Positions 4,175 to 41,582 of a stretch of DNA of 64,000 nucleotides are shown one piece after another. The stretch is from the sequence record NC_055781.1; one strand, 5' to 3'. Made by a program: the position numbers and the translations under genes. Position 1 is the stretch's first letter. Every line of letters begins with the position of its first letter. Below the pieces are notes generated by a model. The model had not been told where the DNA came from and made no database searches. It saw only the letters and a list, made by a program, of their open reading frames with translations. This DNA comes from Escherichia phage p000v.

Positions 4175-4196
4175 GGGAGACTTCGGTCTCCCTTTT
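4175..4196 (+). terminator. Intrinsic terminator after gene 32 (UUCG tetraloop hairpin + U-run)
   Basis: GGGAGAC-TTCG-GTCTCCC followed by TTTT. Confidence 0.7.
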
Positions 4197-4223
4197 GAGT
4201 ATCTGTAAATTGCCGAAAAAGTT

Positions 4224-4252
4224 GTTTACTTCTTCCCTGGATGTGTTAGTAT
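4224..4252 (+). promoter_or_regulatory. T4-type early promoter
   Basis: GTTTAC at 4224..4229, TGTGT-TAGTAT -10 at 4247..4252, then conserved leader CAACAACACGAGGAAA before the ATG at 4282. Confidence 0.55.
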
Positions 4253-4735: not shown

Positions 4736-6431
<1,696 letters not shown>

Positions 6432-6774: not shown

Positions 6775-9030
6775 ATGCAAGTAACTAAGAGCAGTGGTGT
6801 ATCCCAAAATTTTGATGCACAGAAAATTATTCAAGTCTTAACTTGGCAGTGTGAAGGAACACAAATCGACCCATATGAATTGTACGAAGAAATTAAGACC
6901 CATCTTGTTGACGGGATGAGCACCAAAGATATTCAGAAGATTTGTATTAAAGTTGCAGCTAACTCGATTTCTGTCGAAGAACCTGATTATCAATATGTTG
7001 CCGCTAAAGGATTAATGTTTGCGCTTCGTAAAGATGTATATGGACAGTTTGAACCTCCTGCTTTTATCGACCATATCTCGTATTGTGTTAATGAAGGCAA
7101 ATACGATCCTGAGTTGTTGTCTAGATATTCTGCAGAAGAAATCATTTATCTTGATTCTCGGATTAAACATGAGCGAGATTTTGATCTGACTTATGCTGGT
7201 GCTATGCAGCTTAAAGAAAAATACCTGGTTAAAGATAAAACAACTGGGAAGATTTATGAAACTCCACAGTTTGCTATCATGGCTATCGGTATGGCCTTAC
7301 ATCAAGACGAAACTCATGACCGTTTGAAACATATTATTCGTTTTTATGATGCCGTTTCTACTCATCAAGTTTCATTGCCTACTCCAATTATGGCAGGTGC
7401 TCGTACTCCAACTCGCCAGTTCTCTAGTTGTGTAGTTATTGAAGCCGGTGATTCGTTAAAATCTATTAACAAAACTTCAGCATCAATTATCGAATATATT
7501 TCTAAACGAGCTGGCATTGGTATTAACGTTGGTATGCTTCGTGCAGAAGGTTCTAAGATCGGTATGGGTGAAGTTAGACATACGGGTGTTATTCCATTCT
7601 GGAAACATTTCCAAACTGCAGTAAAATCTTGTTCTCAAGGTGGTATTCGTGGTGGTGCTGCTACAGCGTATTATCCGATGTGGCACTTAGAAGTAGAGAA
7701 CCTATTAGTTCTGAAAAATAACAAAGGCGTGGATGAAAACCGTATTCGACATATGGACTACGGAATTCAGATTAATGACCTCATGATGGAACGCCTTGGT
7801 AAAAATGATTATATTACTTTATTTAGCCCTCACGAAATGTCAGGCGAACTATACTACTCGTTCTTTGAAGATCAAGATAAATTCCGTGAGCTTTATGAGA
7901 AAGCTGAAAAAGACCCAACAATCAGAAAGAAAAGAATCAAAGCACTAGAACTCTTTGAATTGTTCATGACTGAACGCTCTGGTACTGCTCGAATTTATCC
8001 ACAATTCGTTGATAACACGAACAACTACACTCCATTTATTCGTGAAAAAGCTCCAATTCGACAGAGTAACTTATGTTGTGAAATCGCTATTCCAACTAAT
8101 GATGTGAATGGTCCTGATGCTGAAATTGGTTTATGTACGTTATCTGCTTTTGTATTAGATAAATTTGATTGGCAAGACCAAGATAAAATTAATGAACTGG
8201 CCGAAGTACAAGTACGTGCACTTGATAACTTGTTAGACTATCAAGATTATCCGGTTCCAGAAGCTTTAAAAGCTAAAAAGCGTCGAAACCTCGGTGTTGG
8301 TGTGACGAACTATGCCGCATGGTTAGCTTCTAACTTTGCTTCATATGAAGACGCTAACGATTTGACTCATGAATTGTTTGAGAGATTGCAATATGGCCTT
8401 ATCAAAGCTTCAATCAAACTCGCCAAAGAAAAAGGACCTTGTGAGTATTATTCAGACACTAAATGGTCTAGAGGCGAATTACCTATCGACTGGTACAATA
8501 AAAAGATTGACCAAATCGCAGCCCCGAACTACGTCTGTGACTGGGAAGAACTTCGAGCTGAACTCAAAGAACATGGAATTCGTAACAGCACACTTAGTGC
8601 TCTCATGCCATGCGAATCAAGCAGTCAAGTCTCAAATAGCACAAACGGTATAGAGCCACCTCGTGGACCTGTAAGTATTAAAGAATCTAAAGAAGGCAAC
8701 TTCCGACAGGTTGTTCCTAATATTGAACACAACATGGGTCTTTATGACTATGCGTGGAAACTCGCTAAGAAAGGTAATAAGCCTTATCTGACACAAGTTG
8801 TTATCATGTTAAAATGGGTATGCCAATCTGCTTCTGCTAATACTTACTATGACCCTGCAGTATTTGAGAAAGGTAAAGTGCCAATGTCGGTAATGCTTGA
8901 CGATCTGCTTTACTTCTGGTACTTTGGCGGAAAAAACCTCTACTATCATAACACTCGTGATGGGTCAGGTACAGATGACTACGAATTAGAAACACCTAAA
9001 GCTGAAGATTGTTCTGCTTGTAAGCTTTAA
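6775..9030 (+). CDS. nrdA: Aerobic ribonucleoside-diphosphate reductase large subunit
   Basis: 751 aa; class Ia RNR alpha sequence with conserved catalytic-site cysteines (NLCCEIA) and C-terminal CxxC tail; T4 position. Confidence 0.95.
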   Translation: MQVTKSSGVSQNFDAQKIIQVLTWQCEGTQIDPYELYEEIKTHLVDGMSTKDIQKICIKVAANSISVEEPDYQYVAAKGLMFALRKDVYGQFEPPAFIDHISYCVNEGKYDPELLSRYSAEEIIYLDSRIKHERDFDLTYAGAMQLKEKYLVKDKTTGKIYETPQFAIMAIGMALHQDETHDRLKHIIRFYDAVSTHQVSLPTPIMAGARTPTRQFSSCVVIEAGDSLKSINKTSASIIEYISKRAGIGINVGMLRAEGSKIGMGEVRHTGVIPFWKHFQTAVKSCSQGGIRGGAATAYYPMWHLEVENLLVLKNNKGVDENRIRHMDYGIQINDLMMERLGKNDYITLFSPHEMSGELYYSFFEDQDKFRELYEKAEKDPTIRKKRIKALELFELFMTERSGTARIYPQFVDNTNNYTPFIREKAPIRQSNLCCEIAIPTNDVNGPDAEIGLCTLSAFVLDKFDWQDQDKINELAEVQVRALDNLLDYQDYPVPEALKAKKRRNLGVGVTNYAAWLASNFASYEDANDLTHELFERLQYGLIKASIKLAKEKGPCEYYSDTKWSRGELPIDWYNKKIDQIAAPNYVCDWEELRAELKEHGIRNSTLSALMPCESSSQVSNSTNGIEPPRGPVSIKESKEGNFRQVVPNIEHNMGLYDYAWKLAKKGNKPYLTQVVIMLKWVCQSASANTYYDPAVFEKGKVPMSVMLDDLLYFWYFGGKNLYYHNTRDGSGTDDYELETPKAEDCSACKL

Positions 9031-9071: not shown

Positions 9072-10262
9072 GTGAGAAATATAATGAGTACAGTTTTTAA
9101 TACACAACAAGTCGATGTTTTGAACGAACCGATGTTCTTTGGTTCTGGTCTTGGTCTTGCACGTTATGATATTCAGCGTCATAAAGTTTTCGAAGAACTT
9201 ATTGAAAAGCAATTGTCGTTTTTCTGGCGCCCAGAAGAGGTAAACTTGATGTTGGACTCTGCGCAGTTCAATAAGCTTCCTCAGTTCCAACAGGACATCT
9301 TTACAAACAATCTTAAGTATCAATCATTATTAGATTCTATCCAAGGCAGGGCCCCATCTGCGGTACTTATGGCACTGATTTCTGACCCTTCATTAGATAC
9401 ATGGGTTGCAACATGGACATTCAGTGAAACTATTCACTCTCGTTCATATACTCATATTATGCGAAATCTTTATACCGATCCATCCAAGGTATTTGATGAG
9501 ATTGTATTAGACGAAGCAATCATGAAACGAGCTGAATCAATAGGTAAATATTACGATGATGTTCTGGTTAAAACTCGTTATTGGGAAAACGCTAAAGCTG
9601 ATATCGAATACCAAAAAGAAATTAATGCAGACGAAGACGTTATTGAAGATGCTATTGGGCATGAGACATATTGGAAGCGTGAGCTAATGAAATCTCTTTA
9701 TCTTTGCCTTCATGTAATTAACGCCTTGGAAGCTATTCGTTTTTATGTATCTTTCGCATGTACCTTTAACTTCCATAAAAACATGGAAATTATGGAAGGT
9801 AATGCAAAGATTATGAAGTTCATTGCCCGTGACGAACAACTCCACCTCAAGGGTACTCAATATATTATTCGTCAACTTCAATCTGGTACTGACGGTGATG
9901 AGTGGGTTCAAATTGCTAAAGAATGTGAACAAGAAGCAGTTGACATTTTTATGGAAGTAAATAGTCAAGAGAAGGAATGGGCTGCACACCTCTTTAAAGA
10001 TGGTACATGTCCAGGTATCAATACGCAGAGTATGTGTGCTTTTGTTGATTACTTGACTGTGTCTCGTATGAAACAGTGTGGTTTGCCATGCCCAATCACT
10101 GATGCTCCGTCCAAGCATCCGTATCCTTGGATTCGTGAATATCTGAACTCTGATTTAGTTCAAGCAGCTCCTCAGGAAGTTGAAATCAGTTCTTATCTTG
10201 TCGCACAAATTGATAATGATGTAGACCAAAATGTAATCAATTCATACAAAAAATATTTCTAA
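9072..10262 (+). CDS. nrdB: Aerobic ribonucleoside-diphosphate reductase small subunit (uninterrupted, no intron)
   Basis: 396 aa; di-iron/tyrosyl radical R2 family sequence; continuous reading frame. Confidence 0.95.
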   Translation: MRNIMSTVFNTQQVDVLNEPMFFGSGLGLARYDIQRHKVFEELIEKQLSFFWRPEEVNLMLDSAQFNKLPQFQQDIFTNNLKYQSLLDSIQGRAPSAVLMALISDPSLDTWVATWTFSETIHSRSYTHIMRNLYTDPSKVFDEIVLDEAIMKRAESIGKYYDDVLVKTRYWENAKADIEYQKEINADEDVIEDAIGHETYWKRELMKSLYLCLHVINALEAIRFYVSFACTFNFHKNMEIMEGNAKIMKFIARDEQLHLKGTQYIIRQLQSGTDGDEWVQIAKECEQEAVDIFMEVNSQEKEWAAHLFKDGTCPGINTQSMCAFVDYLTVSRMKQCGLPCPITDAPSKHPYPWIREYLNSDLVQAAPQEVEISSYLVAQIDNDVDQNVINSYKKYF

Positions 10263-10288: not shown

Positions 10289-10699
10289 ATGAAAGATATT
10301 GCCGCCGAATATTCCTTTATTAAATATATAGAATTGGAGCTATTAGAAGATGCAACAATTAAAACAGTTGATGTCCCTAATAAGAAAAATGTCATATACG
10401 CTATTGCTATAGATGACGAACTTGTGTATATTGGTAAAACCAAGAATTTAAAGAAACGCATTAACTATTATCGAACAGCCATAAATCGAAAAGACCAGAC
10501 TTCAGATTCAAGAAAATCACTTATGATTTTGGATGCCTTAATGCAAGGCAAAAAGGTTGAATTCTGGGCCCGCCAATGTTTTGACCTTTCAGTCACCAAC
10601 GAACTTGGTTCAATGACCATCGCAACAATGGACCTTGAAGAACCACTTTTTATCAAAAAGTTCAACCCGCCTTGGAATATCCAACATAAGAAAAAGTAG
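10289..10699 (+). CDS. denA: Endonuclease II (GIY-YIG nuclease that nicks cytosine-containing host DNA)
   Basis: 136 aa, same length as T4 EndoII; GIY-YIG-type motif VYIGKTKNLKKRINYY; ends ...FNPPWNIQHKKK as T4 protein. Confidence 0.85.
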   Translation: MKDIAAEYSFIKYIELELLEDATIKTVDVPNKKNVIYAIAIDDELVYIGKTKNLKKRINYYRTAINRKDQTSDSRKSLMILDALMQGKKVEFWARQCFDLSVTNELGSMTIATMDLEEPLFIKKFNPPWNIQHKKK

Positions 10700-10728
10700 T
10701 TTACATACCACAAGGATTGTGGTACAAT
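10699..10728 (+). promoter_or_regulatory. T4-type early promoter upstream of rnlA
   Basis: GTTTAC 10699..10704 (overlaps denA stop), 17-bp spacer, TACAAT 10723..10728. Confidence 0.55.
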
Positions 10729-11882: not shown

Positions 11883-11912
11883 GTTTACAAACACCAAGGA
11901 TGGTGTTACTAT
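11883..11912 (+). promoter_or_regulatory. T4-type early promoter upstream of alc
   Basis: GTTTAC 11883..11888, 17-bp spacer, TACTAT 11907..11912, leader CAACAACACGAGGAGAAAA. Confidence 0.6.
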
Positions 11913-13074: not shown

Positions 13075-13289
13075 CTAAAGAACAGCATGAATACATTAAA
13101 GGGCTTATCTATGAATCTGAAATGGCGGCTATGATTTATGGGCGCCAGATTCAACGATTAGAATCTTTGCCTCCAACTAACGACCGCTTGTTAGTTCAGT
13201 CTCGTGCTAATCTGAAAAATGAATATCAGAATAAGTGGGCAGTAGCGACTAAAGCTCTTCACGAGTATATTGAATCTTTAGTAAAATAG
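13065..13289 (+). CDS. Hypothetical small protein
   Basis: 74-aa ORF overlapping the o-spanin 3' end; no motif recognised. Confidence 0.4.
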   Translation: MSMTKEQHEYIKGLIYESEMAAMIYGRQIQRLESLPPTNDRLLVQSRANLKNEYQNKWAVATKALHEYIESLVK

Positions 13290-13318
13290 TTTACAAACTC
13301 TCAGGAGCAGAGTATAAT
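13289..13318 (+). promoter_or_regulatory. T4-type early promoter
   Basis: GTTTAC 13289..13294, 17-bp spacer, TATAAT 13313..13318. Confidence 0.6.
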
Positions 13319-15412: not shown

Positions 15413-15442
15413 GTTTACAACATGGTGGAGTTGTGATACTAT
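15413..15442 (+). promoter_or_regulatory. T4-type early promoter
   Basis: GTTTAC 15413..15418, 17-bp spacer, TGTGA-TACTAT 15437..15442, leader CAACAAATGAGGAAA. Confidence 0.6.
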
Positions 15443-15470
15443 AACTCTACCAACAAATGAGGAAATCGAA

Positions 15471-15827: not shown

Positions 15828-16820
15828 ATGTTACCTGTCGTCGGAAAACTTATTTCTCCAAAAGAACTAGCTGAGATTATTCCTTTGTCGGAAGCTTACG
15901 CATCACAAGTGGCTTCTCATCGCGAACAAGTTAATTCGATTATGAACGGTGAAGACCCACGCAAACTTATTGTTGTAGGTCCTTGTTCAATTCATGACCC
16001 TATTGCTGCTGTTGAATACGGCAAACGTCTGGCTGAACTTCAAACTCGTCTTCCTAATGTTCTGTTAGTGATGCGCGTTTATTTTGAAAAGCCTCGAACT
16101 ACCGTAGGTTGGAAAGGTCTTGTAAATGATCCATATCTTGACGGAAGTTTTGATATGAACCACGGTCTTATAGTTGCACGAACATTGTGTCGTAAACTTC
16201 TACGTATGGGACTTCCATTAGCAACTGAAGTATTAGACCCATTCACTATTAAGTATCTTTCTGGTATTTTCTCATGGGTTGCTATTGGCGCACGTACGAC
16301 TGAAAGTCAGACACATCGTGAAATTGCTTCAGGTCTACCGATGTGCGTAGGCTTCAAGAACGCAACCAATGGTTCTATTAAAGTAGCTACAGACGCGATG
16401 TATAGTGCCGCCTGGCCTCATCGGTATATGGGTATGGACGTCGATGGTACTGTAGGCATTGTTGAAGCTGAAGGTAATCAGAATACGCATATCGTATTGC
16501 GTGGCGGGACCAACGGCCCGAACTATCATTCTTCTGATATTCAAGAAGCTTCTAACAAAGCAAGGGCAGTAGGTCTGAATCATTATGTAATGGTTGACTG
16601 TAGCCATGCAAACGCTGATGGGCATTATAGCAATCAAATTGGTATTGGTAAAAATTTAGCAGCTAATGATTTGGTCAAAGGAATTATGATAGAATCGTTC
16701 CTACATGAAGGAAATCAAAAAATTTCTGATAATATGTCCTATGGCGTTTCCGTTACCGATGCGTGCATCAGTTGGGAACAAACTAAAGAGCTGTTAACTT
16801 ATATTAATAAGGTTCAATAA
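15828..16820 (+). CDS. 3-deoxy-D-arabino-heptulosonate-7-phosphate (DAHP) synthase, class I alpha (AroG/AroF/AroH-like)
   Basis: 330 aa; hallmark motifs LIVVGPCSIHD, VMRVYFEKPRTTVGWKGLVNDP, IGARTTESQTHRE, GFKN, RGG..PNY, VDCSHAN align with E. coli AroG/AroH as recalled; N-terminus ~15-25 residues shorter than the E. coli enzymes. Confidence 0.85.
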   Translation: MLPVVGKLISPKELAEIIPLSEAYASQVASHREQVNSIMNGEDPRKLIVVGPCSIHDPIAAVEYGKRLAELQTRLPNVLLVMRVYFEKPRTTVGWKGLVNDPYLDGSFDMNHGLIVARTLCRKLLRMGLPLATEVLDPFTIKYLSGIFSWVAIGARTTESQTHREIASGLPMCVGFKNATNGSIKVATDAMYSAAWPHRYMGMDVDGTVGIVEAEGNQNTHIVLRGGTNGPNYHSSDIQEASNKARAVGLNHYVMVDCSHANADGHYSNQIGIGKNLAANDLVKGIMIESFLHEGNQKISDNMSYGVSVTDACISWEQTKELLTYINKVQ

Positions 16821-18462: not shown

Positions 18463-18627
18463 TTGCTATCATGCGTCAGCAAAAGGTTAGCTGTGTAAGT
18501 CATGGTAGGTATGATGACGGGTTTATGGTTATCCCGGTCGTTAAATATCCAAAAACCTATGTTCCCCTTGAGGGCTTGCGCAGGCAATGTCAATAAGTCC
18601 TGCATTTTCATTTAAAGAGAATTTATA

Positions 18628-18807
18628 ATGGCAAAACAAGCTAAAGCAAAGAAAGCAGTTGAAAAGAAAGTTGATGGTACCTCTAAACGCTCTGGATACA
18701 AGCGTGGGTCGAACTCTCGTATTAATCAAACAGTTGAGAAGATCATGCGCAGAGCACGTGCAGTTCTTCGAGATGATGCTTCTCGTTTTGGAAAGGTTGT
18801 TGCATAA
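18628..18807 (+). CDS. Hypothetical small lysine/arginine-rich protein (59 aa), not in the supplied ORF track
   Basis: ATG 18628 preceded by AAAGAGA RBS; MAKQAKAKKAVEKKVDGTSKRSGYKRGSNSRINQTVEKIMRRARAVLRDDASRFGKVVA; followed directly by a strong terminator. Confidence 0.4.
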   Translation: MAKQAKAKKAVEKKVDGTSKRSGYKRGSNSRINQTVEKIMRRARAVLRDDASRFGKVVA

Positions 18808-18812
18808 TTTTA

Positions 18813-18834
18813 GGGAGACTTCGGTCTCCCTTTT
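18813..18834 (+). terminator. Intrinsic terminator (same hairpin as after gene 32)
   Basis: GGGAGAC-TTCG-GTCTCCC followed by TTTT. Confidence 0.7.
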
Positions 18835-18866
18835 GTGCGTTTAGGGCAGAAAAAGTTTAAAAAGAT

Positions 18867-18895
18867 GTTTACTCTCCTGTAGGATGTGTTACTAT
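18867..18895 (+). promoter_or_regulatory. T4-type early promoter
   Basis: GTTTAC 18867..18872, TGTGT-TACTAT 18890..18895, then TAGACTTGTACCA...CTGGAGAATAAAATG leader. Confidence 0.6.
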
Positions 18896-18937
18896 AGACT
18901 TGTACCACCTAATCAATAAAACAAACTGGAGAATAAA

Positions 18938-19306
18938 ATGAAAATCAATCTGAACTCATACATCAAATGTAAAGACCACGACGGTTATAAAGCTATCGAA
19001 ATTAAAGAATTCCAGTGGATGTTATACAAAGAGCAATTTGAGATCGTAAGTTGTATGACCCCTGAAGGTCCTTCAAATGATTTCTCTTGGAAAATTGTGT
19101 TAGCAAACTTTTTCACAGGTGACACATACGAATTAAAAACTATTATTACCGGTAAAATTCGTTCAGAAACATATGTTGACGAAGAAACTGGTTACTCTGA
19201 AGATGTTACATGGTATCAAAATGGACGCATTACAGCAGATAACCTGATCGAAAAAATGAAAGCCAAAGGTGTTTTAAATTTAGACAATTGGATTAAAGTT
19301 GCATAA
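18938..19306 (+). CDS. Hypothetical early protein (30.x cluster)
   Basis: 122-aa ORF with own early promoter and RBS GGAGAA. Confidence 0.5.
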   Translation: MKINLNSYIKCKDHDGYKAIEIKEFQWMLYKEQFEIVSCMTPEGPSNDFSWKIVLANFFTGDTYELKTIITGKIRSETYVDEETGYSEDVTWYQNGRITADNLIEKMKAKGVLNLDNWIKVA

Positions 19307-19310
19307 AACA

Positions 19311-19340
19311 GTTTACTTTGGTACAGGTTATGTTATTATA
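19311..19340 (+). promoter_or_regulatory. T4-type early promoter (near-duplicate of the 18867 cassette)
   Basis: GTTTAC 19311..19316, 17-bp spacer, TATTAT 19335..19340, then TAGACCTGTACCA...CTGGAGAATAAAATG leader. Confidence 0.55.
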
Positions 19341-19380
19341 GACCTGTACCAACAAACAACTTAAACATCTGGAGAATAAA

Positions 19381-19746
19381 ATGAACTACATCAACTTCGA
19401 ACGTAAATATGTTTCTAACGGTATCGCTGGTTCTTCTGAAGTTATTTGCTTATGGAAACACAAAAACGGTACAGTTTGTGAAATCGAACAGTGCATGACT
19501 CCTAATTACGTTTATATGCGCTTTGAAAATGGTATCACGGTTTCAATCACGTTGGAAGGTTCCAACTTCAAAATTGCATTAGATGACGATTTCCGTCAAC
19601 GTGATTTAGGTACTCATCCTTGCTGGAACGGTGTTAATCGTAAGCTTCTGGTTAAAACTTGGATTCGTCACATCCTGAGCAACCGAGCTAAACCTGAACA
19701 CCTGGAAGCAATCTTTGATGTAGTTCTGAACGAATTCGATATCTAA
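19381..19746 (+). CDS. Hypothetical early protein (30.x cluster)
   Basis: 121-aa ORF; contains several Cys/His (C..C, HPCW) but no confident motif. Confidence 0.5.
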   Translation: MNYINFERKYVSNGIAGSSEVICLWKHKNGTVCEIEQCMTPNYVYMRFENGITVSITLEGSNFKIALDDDFRQRDLGTHPCWNGVNRKLLVKTWIRHILSNRAKPEHLEAIFDVVLNEFDI

Positions 19747-19756
19747 TCTTAAAAAT

Positions 19757-19775
19757 GGAGGCCGAAGCCTCCTTT
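19757..19775 (+). terminator. Hairpin / weak terminator
   Basis: GGAGGC-CGAA-GCCTCC followed by TTT. Confidence 0.45.
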
Positions 19776-19787
19776 GAGGAAAATATT

Positions 19788-20075
19788 ATGTTTATGACCA
19801 CTTATTTCGATACTCGTAAAAATTTCTGTGAAGTTGTTTTCTCTAAAGCAGGTAAAGATGTTCCTGCCGACAAACAGCCCACTCGTGAATCCATTAAGGC
19901 TTATGCTGATGTGGTTTGTCCAGTAGAATTCCGTACAGTCAATGGTCGTGACACCCTAGCAATCACTAAGCTCAACCATGATATTAACATCGGCTCTAGC
20001 GCCGCACGTGAAGTCAATACCTCTGACATCTATGGCGGTAATGTTAAATCACACGGATTTCAGATGAGGTTCTAA
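19788..20075 (+). CDS. Hypothetical protein (30.x cluster)
   Basis: 95 aa from ATG 19788 (MFMTTYFDTRKNF...); the track ORF 19755..20075 starts inside the upstream hairpin. Confidence 0.45.
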   Translation: MFMTTYFDTRKNFCEVVFSKAGKDVPADKQPTRESIKAYADVVCPVEFRTVNGRDTLAITKLNHDINIGSSAAREVNTSDIYGGNVKSHGFQMRF

Positions 20076-20269
20076 TGCAACTATTCTTATCACAAACTGT
20101 CCAGTTAAAAGGTATAGGTATCCCCGGAATGATTTCAAAGGTTTTACCTGCTTTTAAAATTAACGGTAATGTAATTAAAGAAGCCTATGCAGTCCTGTGG
20201 GTTGATGGAACTGAAGACGTCCGCATGAGCCAAGAACTGTCTGTAATCAAATGTTTAAAGCGAGGATAA
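20075..20269 (+). CDS. Hypothetical small protein
   Basis: 64-aa ORF, start overlaps preceding stop. Confidence 0.4.
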   Translation: MQLFLSQTVQLKGIGIPGMISKVLPAFKINGNVIKEAYAVLWVDGTEDVRMSQELSVIKCLKRG

Positions 20270-20270
20270 T

Positions 20271-20489
20271 ATGTTTAAGAAACTGATGCAGAAATTGTTT
20301 GGTACGGAAATGATCGAAGTTACTTATCGTGTAACAGACGTTTTTCCATATTATACAGAAAACCGTTTAGAACCATACGTTACGTCAATTAAAATGCCTA
20401 AAAATGACGGAAATTTATCTATCGAAGACCGTATACCTGGATACGGTCATTGGGCTGATGTTGAAATTATAAGTGTTAAAGATGTCTGA
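20271..20489 (+). CDS. Hypothetical small protein
   Basis: 72-aa ORF. Confidence 0.4.
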   Translation: MFKKLMQKLFGTEMIEVTYRVTDVFPYYTENRLEPYVTSIKMPKNDGNLSIEDRIPGYGHWADVEIISVKDV

Positions 20490-20940
20490 ATTAGAAATAA
20501 GAAGTAATTTCAAGTGGCCGTCATGTGCATTAAGTAACTTTGCTCAATGGCCTTTTGTTATGGATGGTATTCAATTCGGAGGTCTTGAAGGATTTCTCCA
20601 AGGGTGTAAGGTGAAAAATGTTGAACAACAAAGACGTATATTTGGGTTGTCTGGATTGGCTGCACAGCAAGCTGGAAGGTCTTATGCAAGAGCTCAGGAC
20701 CGTGGGACTCTCTTCTGGTTAGGAGTTCCGTTTTCAAGATACTCTGAAGCGTGGAAAGAATTATACACAAATGCATATTTTGAAGCCGCGATCCAAAATA
20801 AGGGGTTTCGTGATGCCTTACAAGCCTCTAAAGGAAAAATTTTGAAGCACAGCATGGCTAGCCACCTAACAAAAGATGATACAATACTAACCGAAACTGA
20901 ATTTGTTGATGTGTTAAACCTATTAAGAGACTCTTTATGA
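20482..20940 (+). CDS. NADAR / YbiA-like (DUF1768) domain protein, candidate ADP-ribose or N-glycoside processing enzyme
   Basis: 152 aa from ATG 20482 (overlaps upstream stop ATGTCTGA); segment LSNFAQWPFVMDGIQFGGLEGFLQGCKV...RRIFGLSGLAAQQAGRS resembles the SNFA-WP--DG...E--FQ--K...AA--GR core of E. coli YbiA as I recall it. Confidence 0.5.
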   Translation: MSELEIRSNFKWPSCALSNFAQWPFVMDGIQFGGLEGFLQGCKVKNVEQQRRIFGLSGLAAQQAGRSYARAQDRGTLFWLGVPFSRYSEAWKELYTNAYFEAAIQNKGFRDALQASKGKILKHSMASHLTKDDTILTETEFVDVLNLLRDSL

Positions 20941-23764: not shown

Positions 23765-25852
23765 ATGTCTGAACAATTAAATGAAGTGTTTGAATCTGAA
23801 GGCAGTCTTCCTGTCGTCAATTTGAACCCTAAAGCTAAAGTTCCACAAGTTTGGAAAATTGGTGATATCGATACAAACATCGTAGTCCGTTTATTCTCTT
23901 ACCTTTCCGAAGGCGATGCTGTAAAACAAGTTAAACTTGGTGACAAATACGCTCATGTTGTTATTATGAGTCTATCTGAAAAGGGTAATCTCGCTGAATT
24001 GAAAAATGGCCTTGGTCCTGCTCCTATTGATGCAATCAACACCATTTTCAATACAGTGTATGAACAGGTTAAAGCTCTTCGTATGGATGCAGTTTTGTTC
24101 CGATTCCCTACCAAGAAATTGAAAGGACGTGGACAACAACTTCAAACTCTTCTTGCTCGTTTAGTTTCTACTAAAACTGGTGGTCGTTTTAAAGTATTGT
24201 CTGCAATGTATCAATTCACAGGTAAACACACCTATGTGATGATGGTTCGTAAAAATGCCAACATTGAAGATATTAAAGGCATCCCTAACATTAACACAGA
24301 GTTGTACACGAAAGTAGATTCTGATGTTGGCGAAGTTTATGTGAGTAAAAAGACTGGCGAAAAAGTCACCAAAGAAACGGCTATAGCTGGTTCTATTGCT
24401 GCTGTAGAAGAAAAACGTAAAGATAAGCCTGTTATTGCTCGTACTAAAATTTCTCGTCGTGCTATTGCAGCAAGTCAATCTTTAGAAGCTGACCGCCAAG
24501 AAGGTGAGTTATTCCAGAAATACGAAAATTCTGCTAAAGAAGTTAGTGGTCCAGCTACAGCTGAATTACTTCCTGAAGCATATGAAATCGTACTAGCCCA
24601 AGCATCGTCCACAGCAAAAGGCACTTTAGTTGCTGATATCGAAAATAAGATTTATAATCGTATTGATGAATCCTTTAGATTTGCTGATGAAGTTTCTTAT
24701 GGTAGTGTTATTAAGCCGACTTTAGAAAAGTTTGCTAAGAAAATTAAAACTGAAAAAACAACATCTGTTAAAGCATTAGCCGCTTTTGTTGAAGCTGCAA
24801 ACGAAATTGCAGACTCTATTAGAGACGAATGGTTTGAAGATTTTAGACGTGATAATTTCCAACTGCCTGACGATGTTTTAGCTGAAGTATCTGAAAGAAC
24901 TTGGAAACAACGTAAATCAGCGTTCTTGTCTAATGTGATGTATACTTATGCACGAGAATCGGCTAGAGGCACCTTTAATATAACAATGAATCGGGACCCT
25001 AAACAATACTCTGTTGCTGAAAAACGAGCTATTCGTGAATATGCCTCTTCTGCGTATACCGATATCAATAATATGTTGTTAGGTCGTTATAAACCAGATT
25101 TTTACGATGTTGCAGATGAAGATGAAGTTAAACGCGCTATTGATGGTCTTGATTCGGCGTTTTTAAATGGAGACCGTTTACCTGAAGGACTAACGTTGTA
25201 TAGAGCCCAGTCTATCAGAATGCCTATTTATGAAGCAATGGTTAAAAATAAGGTATTCTACTTCAGAAACTATGTTTCCACTTCACTAGCTCCTATTATT
25301 TTCGGCGGGTTTAAAGAGAACGTTGCCCTTGGACTTGCTCCTGAAGAAGTTCGCAAAGAGCTTAACATTGACAATAATGACGAAGGTGTTACTATTTCTC
25401 CTAGTCAAGTAAGAACAGCTATGCATGCGCCAGAACAAATCCGTGTTAACGTTGGATGGGCTATTGATGGCGCCCATAAAGTTAACGTGATTTATCCGGG
25501 ACAGTTGAGTAATCACCCTAATGAGCAAGAAATTATTTTGCCTAGAGGCATTCTCTTGCAGATAAATAAAATTACAGATGCGTCATCTGACACTGGTGCA
25601 GGTTTAGAATCCAACCTTAAATTTATTCAAGCTGAAGTCATGTCCTCAGACCAGTTGGACGAAGCTGTCATTTACGATGGTGATGTTCTCATGGAAACAG
25701 GCGAGGTGGTTGCTATGACGGGTGAAATCGAATCAGATGAGCCGGTATCGTTCTCCTCATTTGTAGAAAAAACTAGTGCTCCTAAAGGATTGAAACTGTT
25801 AGCATCTTTAATGGATTTGGAATCGGTTCCGTTTAAATTTGTTCAAGGATAG
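23765..25852 (+). CDS. alt: Alt ADP-ribosyltransferase (head-packaged, modifies host RNA polymerase alpha)
   Basis: 695 aa; N-terminus MSEQLNEVFESEGSLPVVNL; C-terminal ART core with R-S-E type motifs (YRAQS, FRNYVSTS, QEIILPRG); T4 position downstream of gene 30. Confidence 0.85.
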   Translation: MSEQLNEVFESEGSLPVVNLNPKAKVPQVWKIGDIDTNIVVRLFSYLSEGDAVKQVKLGDKYAHVVIMSLSEKGNLAELKNGLGPAPIDAINTIFNTVYEQVKALRMDAVLFRFPTKKLKGRGQQLQTLLARLVSTKTGGRFKVLSAMYQFTGKHTYVMMVRKNANIEDIKGIPNINTELYTKVDSDVGEVYVSKKTGEKVTKETAIAGSIAAVEEKRKDKPVIARTKISRRAIAASQSLEADRQEGELFQKYENSAKEVSGPATAELLPEAYEIVLAQASSTAKGTLVADIENKIYNRIDESFRFADEVSYGSVIKPTLEKFAKKIKTEKTTSVKALAAFVEAANEIADSIRDEWFEDFRRDNFQLPDDVLAEVSERTWKQRKSAFLSNVMYTYARESARGTFNITMNRDPKQYSVAEKRAIREYASSAYTDINNMLLGRYKPDFYDVADEDEVKRAIDGLDSAFLNGDRLPEGLTLYRAQSIRMPIYEAMVKNKVFYFRNYVSTSLAPIIFGGFKENVALGLAPEEVRKELNIDNNDEGVTISPSQVRTAMHAPEQIRVNVGWAIDGAHKVNVIYPGQLSNHPNEQEIILPRGILLQINKITDASSDTGAGLESNLKFIQAEVMSSDQLDEAVIYDGDVLMETGEVVAMTGEIESDEPVSFSSFVEKTSAPKGLKLLASLMDLESVPFKFVQG

Positions 25853-25881
25853 TTTACAAGCACATGGATGTGTGATACTAT
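25852..25881 (+). promoter_or_regulatory. T4-type early promoter
   Basis: GTTTAC 25852..25857 (overlaps alt stop), 17-bp spacer, TGTGA-TACTAT 25876..25881, leader CAACAACATGAGGAAAA. Confidence 0.6.
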
Positions 25882-26204: not shown

Positions 26205-26213
26205 ACCCCTAAA

Positions 26214-26236
26214 GGGAGACGTTGTCTCCCTTTTTT
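26214..26236. terminator. Terminator hairpin between convergent early ORF and gene 54
   Basis: GGGAGAC-GTTG-TCTCCC followed by TTTTTT on + strand; preceded by A-run so potentially bidirectional. Confidence 0.6.
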
Positions 26237-34795: not shown

Positions 34796-36310
34796 TTATA
34801 AATTAATTGTTTTCATTACATAGTTAAATTTCTCATCAGCGTAACGCTGGATACGATCAATACCGTGTTTTAACAAGTAATTAAGATGAGTATACTTCTT
34901 TTTAGTATTTAATGATTTAGGTTTTACACCTGCGTCATCGATGAGATCCCAAACTGTAGCAACGGCTTTAGAACCATGCTTACGAAGCACACGACCTACT
35001 GTTTGAAGTACGATAATTTTTGATTTAACACCATGGGCAAAAATAACATGATGAAGATTCTTGACTGAAATACCGGTAGAGAATACTCCATATGATGCGA
35101 CAATAATAATGCCTTTACCATTTTCTGCCATGACTTTAAGCGCGTTACGTGTTTCAGTATCAACTTCACCTGATACGTAATAAACTTTTTCGTATCCAAG
35201 CTCTTTAATAGCTTCAAATATTTCTTTACCATGTGTAACATGTTTAAACATTACAAAGGCGTTCTCGTCTTTCTTAGCCAATTTGACCGAAAGTTGAGCA
35301 ATCCACTTTGTACGACGTTTTAGTCCGGTAATAATTTTAACTTCTTCTTGGTATGTTTTACCTTTTAATTTAACGGTGAATTCGTCCGGATAACGAAGGA
35401 AAATACTATTAATCTTAAGCTCAGTTACTTGACCGTCTTCCATTAATTTAGACGTGCTAACAGGACGGAAGATTTCGCCGAACATACCTACGTACTGCAT
35501 TACATTGGCTTTTCCGTCTCTTAATGAGCCGGATAAACCGAATTTAAACATACAATTATTTAATCCTGAGATGATTGAAGAAATACTTTTGCCTGTTGCT
35601 AAGTGGCATTCATCGTTCATCATCATACCGAACTGAGAGAACCATTCTTTAGGCTGCTTAACTACCGTTTGCCATGTGCCAACAATAATTGGAGCGTCGT
35701 TTTTAGATTTGTCCGCTTTATCGGCACCACCGCCAATTTTCTTAATCATCGAATGACTAAACAAGCGATAATCAACAAAATCATTAGCCATCTGGGTTGT
35801 CAATGCTGTTGTAGGGACGATAATGAGAATTTTACCTTCATAGTTCTCTAGATAATATCGAGCTAAAAGTGCTTGGATGAGTGATTTACCTGCTGATGTC
35901 GGAAGGTTTAAAATTCGACGACGATTAACTAGACCTTCATATACTGCATCTTTTTGATACCAATGTGGTTCGATTTTGGCGTTGCCTGAATAAATTTCTT
36001 GTTTAGAAAGCCATGCGTCAAAATCTTCCCTGGTAAGGTCTTCAGTCTCAAAGATTTTAGGGTCAATCCATACAGAATAACTCATATTGTTACAGAACTT
36101 TTTTATTTGTCCTACAAGTCCATATGGTAACAAACGATTGTAATCTAAAAGTCGAATTCTACCATCCCATTGCCCATAGCGATATTTTGGGTTAAATTTA
36201 TACCCGTCGGCTTCAAAGCTAAAAAAGTCACGAAGTTCGTAAAACGTACTTTCGTCGCATTCAATGCGCACGTGACTAAAATCATAAAAATGTACTTTAA
36301 TGTCAGTCAT
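34796..36310 (-). CDS. uvsW: UvsW RNA-DNA / DNA-DNA helicase
   Basis: 504 aa; Walker A PTSAGKS and DExH box MMMNDECH; matches T4 UvsW size. Confidence 0.9.
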   Translation of the reverse strand: MTDIKVHFYDFSHVRIECDESTFYELRDFFSFEADGYKFNPKYRYGQWDGRIRLLDYNRLLPYGLVGQIKKFCNNMSYSVWIDPKIFETEDLTREDFDAWLSKQEIYSGNAKIEPHWYQKDAVYEGLVNRRRILNLPTSAGKSLIQALLARYYLENYEGKILIIVPTTALTTQMANDFVDYRLFSHSMIKKIGGGADKADKSKNDAPIIVGTWQTVVKQPKEWFSQFGMMMNDECHLATGKSISSIISGLNNCMFKFGLSGSLRDGKANVMQYVGMFGEIFRPVSTSKLMEDGQVTELKINSIFLRYPDEFTVKLKGKTYQEEVKIITGLKRRTKWIAQLSVKLAKKDENAFVMFKHVTHGKEIFEAIKELGYEKVYYVSGEVDTETRNALKVMAENGKGIIIVASYGVFSTGISVKNLHHVIFAHGVKSKIIVLQTVGRVLRKHGSKAVATVWDLIDDAGVKPKSLNTKKKYTHLNYLLKHGIDRIQRYADEKFNYVMKTINL

Positions 36311-36339
36311 GTCAAATTACCATGTAATAAATATAGTTA

Positions 36340-38264: not shown

Positions 38265-38465
38265 TTGATTATGAGAGCTGAAGTTGAAGTTTATACATTA
38301 CATGAGGCGGGATTTTCATTCGTAGAAATTGCTCAAAAAATTGGTTTACAACCTAAAGAAGTTGGATTACTATGGACTAAAGCCGAGACAGCTCGGTCAA
38401 AGTTTAAAGCAAAAGAAAAAGTTGTATACCGTAAACGTTTGATTAACAAAAAGGTGAAGAAATGA
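38265..38465 (+). CDS. Hypothetical small protein with predicted helix-turn-helix
   Basis: 66 aa; FSFVEIAQKIGLQPKEVGLLW resembles a sigma-region-4/LuxR-type HTH; basic C-terminus. Confidence 0.4.
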   Translation: MIMRAEVEVYTLHEAGFSFVEIAQKIGLQPKEVGLLWTKAETARSKFKAKEKVVYRKRLINKKVKK

Positions 38466-41199: not shown

Positions 41200-41229
41200 G
41201 TTTACAACGTATTTGGTATGTGATACTAT
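41200..41229 (+). promoter_or_regulatory. T4-type early promoter, back-to-back with the gene 24 late promoter
   Basis: GTTTAC 41200..41205, 17-bp spacer, TGTGA-TACTAT 41224..41229, leader CAACTACAGAGGAGTAAACAAAATG. Confidence 0.6.
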
Positions 41230-41259: not shown

Positions 41260-41529
41260 ATGACTAAAGCACGTTTCTTAAGAGATACTTTAAAAGTTCT
41301 AGAAGCTGAAGAAGTTAAGTTAGTAGAAAAATATGGTGCAAAAGTTAACGGTAATGCCTTCAACAAAGTATGGATGAAAGTTGATTCTGAAGCTCGAGCT
41401 AAAGGTTATTGGGCCACTGATAAACTTGCATCATTCAAAAACAAAGACGGTTCTCCGGCATATGTCCAAGAAGGTATGCCTAATTGGCAAAATATTTTGA
41501 AAACTTACATCGAAATTGCACAGAAATAA
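41260..41529 (+). CDS. Hypothetical early protein inserted antisense between capsid genes 23 and 24
   Basis: 89-aa ORF with early promoter, RBS GAGGAG and downstream hairpin; no motif recognised. Confidence 0.5.
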   Translation: MTKARFLRDTLKVLEAEEVKLVEKYGAKVNGNAFNKVWMKVDSEARAKGYWATDKLASFKNKDGSPAYVQEGMPNWQNILKTYIEIAQK

Positions 41530-41533
41530 AACC

Positions 41534-41558
41534 AAAAAATGGGAGACCGAAGTCTCCC
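41534..41558 (-). terminator. Intrinsic terminator of gene 23 (hairpin shared with the + strand ORF)
   Basis: GGGAGAC-CGAA-GTCTCCC; on - strand followed by U-run (+ strand AAAAAA at 41534..41539). Confidence 0.6.
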
Positions 41559-41582
41559 AAAATAAGATTTAATCAATTAAGA

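Follow-up and report, generated by a model that had tools for sequence, protein, structure and literature searches.

The window analysed here is the whole 64,000-nucleotide (nt) stretch of Escherichia phage p000v (NC_055781.1), and the subject is a family of putative early promoter cassettes within it, in particular the two that frame gene 30.8. The window was colinear with phage T4 from ~151.6 to 84 kb in reverse orientation, at 65-95% nucleotide identity, and was 94-96% identical to many Mosigvirus (RB69-like) coliphages. By these comparisons it belongs to a Mosigvirus, a T4-type phage, and its + strand is the strand transcribed for T4 early genes. The focal coordinates (18813-19380) lead from the end of gene 30.9, across gene 30.8, to the start of gene 30.7. 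The following features were delimited, where SD denotes a Shine-Dalgarno sequence and lengths of proteins are in amino acids (aa):

18628-18807, + strand: gene 30.9, 59 aa, the upstream flank of the focal cassette; its stop codon ends at 18807
18812-18831 (to 18835 with UUUU), + strand: terminator-type hairpin AGGGAGAC-UUCG-GUCUCCCU, predicted by folding; the stem-loop of the 30.8 cassette
18848-18866, + strand: A-rich, UP-element-like region AGAAAAAGTTTAAAAAGAT, recognised from the cassette consensus and corresponding to the -40 to -44 region of T4-type early promoters
18867-18895, + strand: putative 30.8 early promoter, with -35 GTTTAC at 18867-18872 and TGn plus -10 TGTTACTAT at 18887-18895
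18896-18937, + strand: 30.8 leader, beginning AGACTTGTACCA, with SD GGAG at 18928-18931; its block GGAGAATAAAATGAAAA is the left crossover zone
18938-19306, + strand: gene 30.8, 122 aa, allele A, PF06019; the exchanged module
19311-19339, + strand: putative 30.7 early promoter, with -35 GTTTAC at 19311-19316 and -10 TATTAT at 19334-19339; its block GTTTACTTTGGTACAGG is the right crossover zone
19318-19352, + strand: hairpin enclosing the 30.7 -10, with arms TTGGTACAGGT (19318-19328) and ACCTGTACCAA (19342-19352)
19381-19746, + strand: gene 30.7, 121 aa, PF06919, preceded by SD GGAG at 19371-19374

Both framed open reading frames (ORFs) were assigned to Pfam families, membership being accepted where the score exceeded the curated gathering threshold across the full profile length. 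The 30.8 ORF matched PF06019 (Phage_30_8; E = 1.7e-44, 151.1 bits against a cut-off of 25) and the 30.7 ORF matched PF06919 (Phage_T4_Gp30_7; E = 1.4e-51, 173.7 bits against a cut-off of 27). All gp30.8 homologues found were PF06019 proteins. The neighbouring proteins were highly conserved: gp30.9 matched phrog_1427 and shared 95% aa identity with its T4 counterpart (94.8% at the DNA level), while gp30.7 was 93% identical to T4 and 91-98% identical across coliphage T-evens. The GGAG SD sequences of 30.8 and 30.7 match the target motif of the T4 RegB endoribonuclease, which would presumably fit a fast shut-off of these early messages. An Rfam scan of the focal locus identified no family, the only matches being far below gathering scores.

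The order terminator-promoter-30.8-promoter-30.7 was identical in T4 at the orthologous place, where the promoters correspond to T4 positions 130310 and 129918. Similarly, the GenBank record of a T4 relative (OL960580) has, at the orthologous places, an annotated terminator that follows 30.9, a 'T4 early promoter' ahead of 30.8 and, ahead of 30.7, another 'T4 early promoter' with an overlapping predicted terminator. The hairpin at 18812-18831 had a predicted stability of -14.1 kcal/mol (z = -3.0). The hairpin at 19318-19352 reached -19.5 kcal/mol in RNA read through from upstream (z = -2.9; 0/200 shuffles were as stable), and RNA started at the 30.7 promoter itself was predicted to be wholly open, with a leader structure of 0 kcal/mol.

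The cassettes at 18867 and 19311 belonged to a wider set. An earlier note on this DNA had proposed that a unit of GTTTAC, 17 nt and TACTAT recurs at ten positions (927, 4224, 10699, 11883, 13289, 15413, 18867, 19311, 25852 and 41200). All ten were present, each with GTTTAC and TA..AT; the spacer, however, was 17 nt at 4224, 18867 and 19311 only, and 18 nt at the other seven. The strict motif GTTTAC-N16-18-TANNAT had 11 matches on the + strand and none on the - strand, while shuffled sequences gave ~1.2 matches on both strands together. An SD followed by ATG lay 16-32 nt past the -10 in 10/11 strict matches and was absent at relaxed, one-mismatch matches. The remaining strict match (38344-38373, + strand) fell inside ORF 24.3, and its function is doubtful. 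An unbiased repeat finder, applied to positions 1-45000 of the window, returned the cassettes as the largest direct-repeat families (D1, D2, D5, D10 and D16). A generic sigma-70 scan of the window was uninformative (59 sites, 59.9 expected), and a scan of IMG/VR with an exact 16-nt pattern, which matched unrelated contigs mostly by chance, was discarded.

Across the ten complete units, the consensus consisted of an A-rich stretch, GTTTAC, a GG-prone spacer, TGTG, TAcTAT and then ag.c.Tat. The bases immediately upstream of GTTTAC were aAaa, extending to AAAAAGT at 4224, 10699 and 18867. The cassettes at 18867 and 19311, which had been described as near-duplicates, did have in common TATAGAC(T/C)TGTACCA (TATAGACYTGTACCA) and a 17-nt SD-ATG block, CTGGAGAATAAAATGAA; but their identity was 72% over the core and 75% over the 20 nt past the -10, and other pairs were as alike (4224/25852, 80%; 10699/11883, 79%). 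Likewise, the supposedly common leader with its ribosome-binding site, of the CAACAACACGAGGAAA type, was found at 4224, 11883 and 25852 and partially at 15413 and 41200, but not at every site. The two ORFs driven in tandem from 18867 and 19311 were indeed unrelated, as claimed, since BLASTP gave E = 0.036 over 8 residues and hhalign a probability of 0.1%.

Stem-loops were classified for the 11 strict sites by folding each unit, with a cross-pairing control. An upstream UUCG terminator was found at 4224 and 18867, a hairpin within the spacer at 10699 and 11883, a hairpin over the -10 at 13289, 15413 and 19311, and a stem enclosing the promoter at 25852; none was found at 927, 38344 or 41200. 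Therefore, of the claim that several copies are preceded by the terminator hairpin, only these two cases stood, six other sites having their hairpin elsewhere and three having none. The perfect form GGGAGAC-TTCG-GTCTCCC was present at 4175 and 18813 as reported, and two further copies of the GGGAGAC/GTCTCCC stem were identified at 26214 and 41541, making four in the window where chance predicts 0. Stability z-scores of the cassette hairpins ranged from -2.9 to -4.65; the strongest were those at 19311 and 15413, with z about -3 and no shuffle as stable.

Complementarity was retained across lineages where the sequences themselves were not. For the cd.2 hairpin (at 15413), 97% of cells were paired across three sequence types, compared with 20-61% in slid controls, and both sides had changed in 4/10 pairs. 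The 30.7 hairpin had three arm sequences in three lineages, the E. coli T-evens differing from Jiaodavirus-type phages (PSE-D1/Roth51), with arms TTGGGTGGT/ACCACCCAA, and from a Kanagawavirus (ZX14), with arms CTGATTGAGTGT/ACACTCAATCAG. Compensatory changes also affected the stem of the post-30.9 terminator, which is GGACTCC/GGAGTCC in T4 and GGGACTC/GAGTCCC in loci L006 and L014, with further changes in PSE-D1, Marfa and ZX14; its tetraloop was retained (UUCG, or UACG in Marfa and CUAG in ZX14). The G-U pairs of these hairpins fit the sense strand, which favours a role for the cassette stem-loops at the RNA level.

Comparison between phages showed that gene 30.8 occurs as at least four divergent alleles (38-98% aa identity), distributed discordantly with genus, between flanks that are nearly invariant. 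Relative to the window, gp30.8 was 98% identical in three Mosigviruses and 57% identical in NHEP11, ST2 and RB69; it was 38% identical in T4 and 88% in ESh18, another Tequatrovirus, and either 40% or 84-86% in different Dhaka/Gapriver-like genomes. About 870 T-even records matched the focal locus. In the phage collection, 189 records carried the window-type (A) allele, 24 the RB69 type and 444 the T4 type. The boundaries of this divergence were sharp. Identity between the window and NHEP11 was 95-100% across the hairpin, promoter, leader and ATGAA, fell to 50-80% (mostly 50-75%) within the 30.8 ORF, and recovered to 95-100% from the stop codon and -35 onward. RB69 carries the same non-A allele as NHEP11, with divergence beginning at the ATG and ending at the stop codon. 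ESh18 was of T4 type up to GGAGAATAAAATGAAAA, of window type through the ORF up to GTTTACTTTGGTACAGG, and of T4 type thereafter, which places both crossovers within 17-nt shared blocks inside the cassettes. By comparison of these genomes, and from the breakpoints they display, the whole 30.8 ORF was shown to have been exchanged between lineages. The earlier note had suggested, as a check, looking for variation of the flanked ORFs between relatives; at 30.8 the variable feature is the allele, which has been replaced, and not the presence or absence of the gene.

These observations are, with high probability, explained if the units are T4-type sigma-70 immediate-early promoters of an RB69-like phage, paired with stem-loops, and if the cassettes served as the crossover points at 30.8. 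By their match to characterised T4 promoters, host sigma-70 polymerase would bind the A-rich UP region, the GTTTAC -35, the TGn extended -10 and the TA..AT -10, and transcription would start ~7 nt past the -10. The RNA would then begin with a short, unstructured leader in which a strong SD, either GAGG or GGAG, precedes the first gene's start codon. The partner of the promoter would be either an upstream C(UUCG)G terminator (18812-18831; 4175-4192) or a hairpin in the spacer or enclosing the -10 (19318-19352). Hairpins of the latter kind could form only in RNA read through from upstream, and for this reason are predicted to attenuate or end the upstream transcript, or to protect its 3' end, while the promoter restarts transcription. 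With respect to recombination, T4-type exchange would need only short homology, and the cassettes form conserved islands of 30-140 bp between fast-evolving small genes; these two properties together would make them crossover points. For 30.8, the SD-ATG block holds the left crossover, and the right one falls within the following promoter, in its -35/spacer block. The cassettes may be either preferred recombination sites or merely the nearest homology.

The units agreed closely with published elements. T4 'uber' early promoters combine UP, -35, TGn and -10 elements with additional consensus regions (Hinton 2010, PMC2988021), and 57 early promoters have been predicted in RB69, with GTTTAC at -36 to -31 and an A-rich segment at -40 to -44 (Nolan et al. 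2006, PMC1524935). The promoter early stem-loop (PeSL) is defined by an AT-rich region, sigma-70-like -35 and -10 elements, a stem-loop in one of five positions, and a 3' SD and ATG (Arbiol et al. 2010, PMC2839356), while the promoter of PeSLs in the T4/PST pair was given as TTTACW-N17-TAYWAT (Comeau et al. 2014, PMC4122927). Stem-loops between the -35 and -10 or overlapping the -10, with G-T pairs, were described for the PeSLs of RB49 and phi1 (PMC2839356). Terminator and promoter assays of PeSLs have been published (PMC2839356, PMC4122927), one RB49 stem-loop having been assayed for termination (PMC2839356). The PeSL-like interpretation in the earlier note was therefore largely supported: the published anatomy was found here, with SD-ATG at 10 of the 11 strict matches and stem-loops in the described positions. 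Its further proposal, that short homologies shuffle the framed genes, holds for the ESh18 crossovers but was not accompanied by an enrichment of indels at cassettes.

A second proposal, that the ORFs delimited by the cassettes are recent acquisitions, is wrong. Genes 30.8 and 30.7 belong to families curated under the names of T4 genes and have kept both position and regulatory layout in T4, in RB69 and in all the T-even relatives that were examined, and on this ground were not recently acquired. Of the seven ORFs flagged as candidates, all in curated Pfam or PHROG families, five had syntenic orthologues in T4 (frd.2, cd.2, 30.8, 30.7 and alt.-3). The other two, ORFs 13347 and 41260, are members of PHROG families and were kept in the four close relatives: ORF 41260 was annotated in all of them, and the segment containing ORF 13347 was colinear at ~95% nucleotide identity in 4/4.

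It is possible, although rather doubtful, that the units are simply promoters under constraint, neither mobile nor recombinogenic, whose likeness results from selection for polymerase and ribosome binding, and that the 30.8 mosaic arose by ordinary recombination anywhere in the flanks, acting on alleles maintained for a long time. Consistent with this, most of the conserved positions belong to the known functional elements UP, -35, TGn, -10 and SD (PMC2988021), most of the framed ORFs are syntenic with T4, and genes 30.9 and 30.7, on either side, provide much more homology than the cassettes. Yet similarity between cassettes reaches past the functional elements, into the leaders AGACYTGTACCA and TATCAACAACA, and neighbouring leaders and cassettes were more alike within a genome than across genomes in PSE-D1 and ZX14. 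Different cassette types occupied a single slot, five being found at cd.2, where, in one locus (L005), the scar of a half-cassette is joined to the upstream side of the promoter. Both ESh18 crossovers, moreover, fell inside cassettes though the flanking genes were available, and mini-circles formed between PeSLs have been shown experimentally in RB49 and phi1 (PMC2839356).

Several results weigh against a recombinational role of the cassettes, or limit what can be claimed for them. Among four close relatives of the same genus, 0/8 indels in 43 kb lay at a cassette; the eight were the intron or homing-endonuclease insertions in td, nrdA and nrdB, the rIII-30.9 spacer, the 30.6 swap, a 30.4 deletion, the 36310 insertion and an indel in hoc. 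When 29 gene junctions at 16 loci were surveyed across genera, indels were again not enriched at those with a cassette, 5/7 of which were variable compared with 11-15 of 22 others (Fisher p 0.29-0.63). Where ORFs had been inserted beside cassettes (the cd.2 and 13347 slots, and T4 frd.3), they directly followed the cassette ATG and only one cassette copy was present; this argues against simple integration of a mini-circle, since a single crossover should leave two. Sharp allele boundaries are also expected if old alleles are maintained while their flanks are homogenised by ordinary recombination. Finally, the hairpin at 19318-19352 lacks a U-run and is thus not a canonical intrinsic terminator, and the promoter and terminator activities discussed here derive from sequence and T4 orthology. 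In more distant genera some plasticity was evident at the same junctions, with extra ORFs in Jiaodavirus, Kanagawavirus and Marfavirus: one or two lay between 30.8 and 30.7, and in one genus an extra ORF lay between 30.9 and 30.8.

An improbable explanation for the inverted repeats around the -10 is that they act on DNA, either as the operator of a dimeric regulator or as a cruciform that aids melting or marks a nuclease or recombination site. The arms are symmetric about the -10 and keep their complementarity with differing sequences across lineages, and, according to the T4 record, the cd.2 repeat had earlier been reported with its loop inverted. However, several sense-strand G-T pairs would be G-U pairs in RNA and A-C mismatches on the other strand, so that an RNA helix fits better; furthermore, the arms differ between promoters and thus provide no common operator, and such repeats occurred at 3/11 promoters only. 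An old tandem duplication of a promoter-plus-gene unit, which would make 30.8 and 30.7 diverged paralogues with inherited cassette likeness, is very improbable: the near-equal ORF lengths, the same SD-ATG block and a C-M-T-P motif at the same position speak for it, but hhalign aligned a single column (from shallow profiles of 8 and 6 sequences, so that very old paralogy is possible), the two genes belong to separate Pfam and PHROG families, and the T4 30.8 leader is unlike the 30.7 leader.

Compared with T4 early promoters (Pe), the window units share GTTTAC at -36 to -31, the A-rich UP region, TGn, TA..AT, the consensus of the initial transcribed region, a strong SD and location on the early strand. 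Nothing of substance differed, the window spacer being 17 or 18 nt from GTTTAC and some leaders, such as that of 30.8, being different. The T4 early promoter consensus is reportedly the subject of classic papers by Liebig and Rueger (1989) and by Wilkens and Rueger (1996); a literature search for T4 transcription start-site or 5'-end maps found nothing relevant. The C(UUCG)G tetraloop hairpins of T4 intercistronic regions, which Tuerk et al. (1988) are said to have described, correspond without difference to those seen here, in having a GC-rich stem, a C-UUCG-G loop placed right after a stop codon, U residues following, and compensatory changes.

PeSL cassettes were similar in their composite anatomy, stem-loop positions, SD-ATG, placement between small early genes, crossovers both between the -10 and ATG and in the promoter, and half-cassette scars in relatives. 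By contrast, the PeSLs of RB49 have polyG/polyC stems where the window has UNCG-loop hairpins or promoter-specific repeats, and the focal cassettes enclose a conserved gene that varies in allele, not lineage-specific ORFans, in a region without indel enrichment. The morons of lambdoid phages resemble the focal unit in being single small genes with their own promoter and terminator, but a moron is not flanked by conserved repeats, and its flanks are not considered to mediate insertion (PMC2839356), whereas gene 30.8 is ancestral to its group and points the same way as the genes beside it.

The kind of element is therefore already known, from T4, PST, RB49 and phi1 and by prediction in RB69 (PMC1524935, PMC2839356, PMC4122927). 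Little new knowledge is added in this respect, given that the promoters and the PeSL concept are published and that public records annotate these very sites. A by-product is the base-resolved description of a cassette-bounded allele exchange, with both 30.8 crossovers in 17-nt shared blocks, and exchanges of the ESh18 type could be used as a test case for cassettes as preferred recombination points. In addition, gp30.8 stands out as an early protein of unusually high polymorphism. Its predicted structure was confident (predicted local distance difference test, pLDDT, 94.6), consisting mostly of beta strands with one C-terminal helix, and structure comparison found no significant solved relative of the fold. 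Given at least four alleles, their genus-discordant distribution and a confident fold without a solved relative, it is tentatively suggested that 30.8 could be a hypervariable early gene whose old alleles are passed between T-even genera as a plug-in module, through the flanking cassettes. If so, 30.8 would be a candidate specificity determinant in host takeover or counter-defence, and the cassette pair around it a natural, portable exchange site.

Together, the cassettes would drive rnh, the frd.2 homologue, rnlA, alc, ORF 13347, cd.2, 30.8, 30.7, alt.-3 and ORF 41260. Six window cassettes were positional orthologues of strict-motif promoters in T4, those at orthologous junctions including T4 150763, 146875, 133331, 130310 and 129918. 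Outside the focal locus, the cassettes and their associated hairpins were as follows:

927-956, + strand: putative rnh early promoter, without a stem-loop; T4 orthologue at 150763
4175-4252, + strand: second full composite cassette, comprising the terminator GGGAGAC-TTCG-GTCTCCC at 4175-4192, after gene 32, and a promoter at 4224-4252; would drive the frd.2 homologue
10699-10728, + strand: putative rnlA early promoter, with an 8-bp hairpin within the spacer
11883-11912, + strand: putative alc early promoter, with a 7-bp hairpin within the spacer
13289-13318, + strand: putative early promoter of ORF 13347 (phrog_2364), with the stem AGGAGC/GCTCCT over the -10
15413-15442, + strand: putative cd.2 early promoter, with a 10-bp hairpin over the -10; its T4 orthologue, at 133331, is the annotated Pe133295
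25852-25881, + strand: putative alt.-3 (DUF5498) early promoter, enclosed by a stem
26211-26233, + strand: terminator hairpin after alt.-3, with the GGGAGAC/GTCTCCC stem (copy 26214) and loop GTT
41200-41229, + strand: putative early promoter of ORF 41260 (phrog_6003), without a stem-loop; segD occupies this slot in T4
41540-41559, no strand assigned: hairpin with the GGGAGAC/GTCTCCC stem (copy 41541) between ORF 41260 and gene 23; its loop CGAA reads UUCG on the - strand

At the cd.2 promoter, the T4 record carries the remark 'inverted complement of previously reported sequence; corrects the early promoter Pe133295'. The corrected stretch is 14 bp long (L001 13301-13314; T4 133300-133313), is orthologous to window ~15433-15446, and lies in the loop region between the arms of the hairpin. 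The discrepancy would stem either from an error that the repeat caused in early sequencing or cloning, or from inversion of the loop. ORF 41260 (41260-41529), which would be driven by the 41200 cassette, encodes 89 aa and belongs to phrog_6003; it is placed between genes 24 and 23, a slot that T4 fills with the homing endonuclease segD, and ends at the two-way hairpin with the GGGAGAC stem.

Upstream of 30.9, the rIII-30.9 spacer (18463-18627) was non-coding or contained tiny ORFs only, yet was ~94% identical to T4. A stretch of 108-134 bp found here in JM17, RPN187 and F27 is missing from the window, and includes the -35 half of a promoter-like site, GTGTAC-N17-TACTAT; a different deletion in T4 removes the -10 half of this site. 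The spacer produced no Rfam match and no unusual fold (z = 0.13).

Downstream of 30.7 was a palindromic hairpin of GNRA/UNCG type, which marks the left edge of a replacement of gene 30.6 in JM17 and F27:

19757-19772, no strand assigned: GGAGGC-CGAA-GCCTCC

In these two phages, 30.6 (19746-20075) was swapped for a 704-bp segment with a 615-nt ORF, the edges of which coincided exactly with the 30.7 stop and the 30.5 start; there was no promoter. RPN187 was without 30.4 (20229-20494). The cd.1 slot (15828-16820) contained an ORF of 330 aa, annotated in relatives as phospho-2-dehydro-3-deoxyheptonate aldolase (DAHP synthase); T4 does not have it, nor does any of the non-Mosigvirus loci examined. 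A suspected 5' truncation of pseT was rejected, as the gene starts with GTG. Lastly, JM17 and F27 had insertions of ~0.7-1.1 kb at positions corresponding to 6118-6123, 8111-8134, 9757-9760 and 36310-36317, none of them present in the window. Those in td, nrdA and nrdB contained ORFs annotated as homing endonucleases (introns or inserted endonuclease genes), while that at 36310, beside uvsW, was 742 bp long and contained an ORF annotated as hypothetical only.

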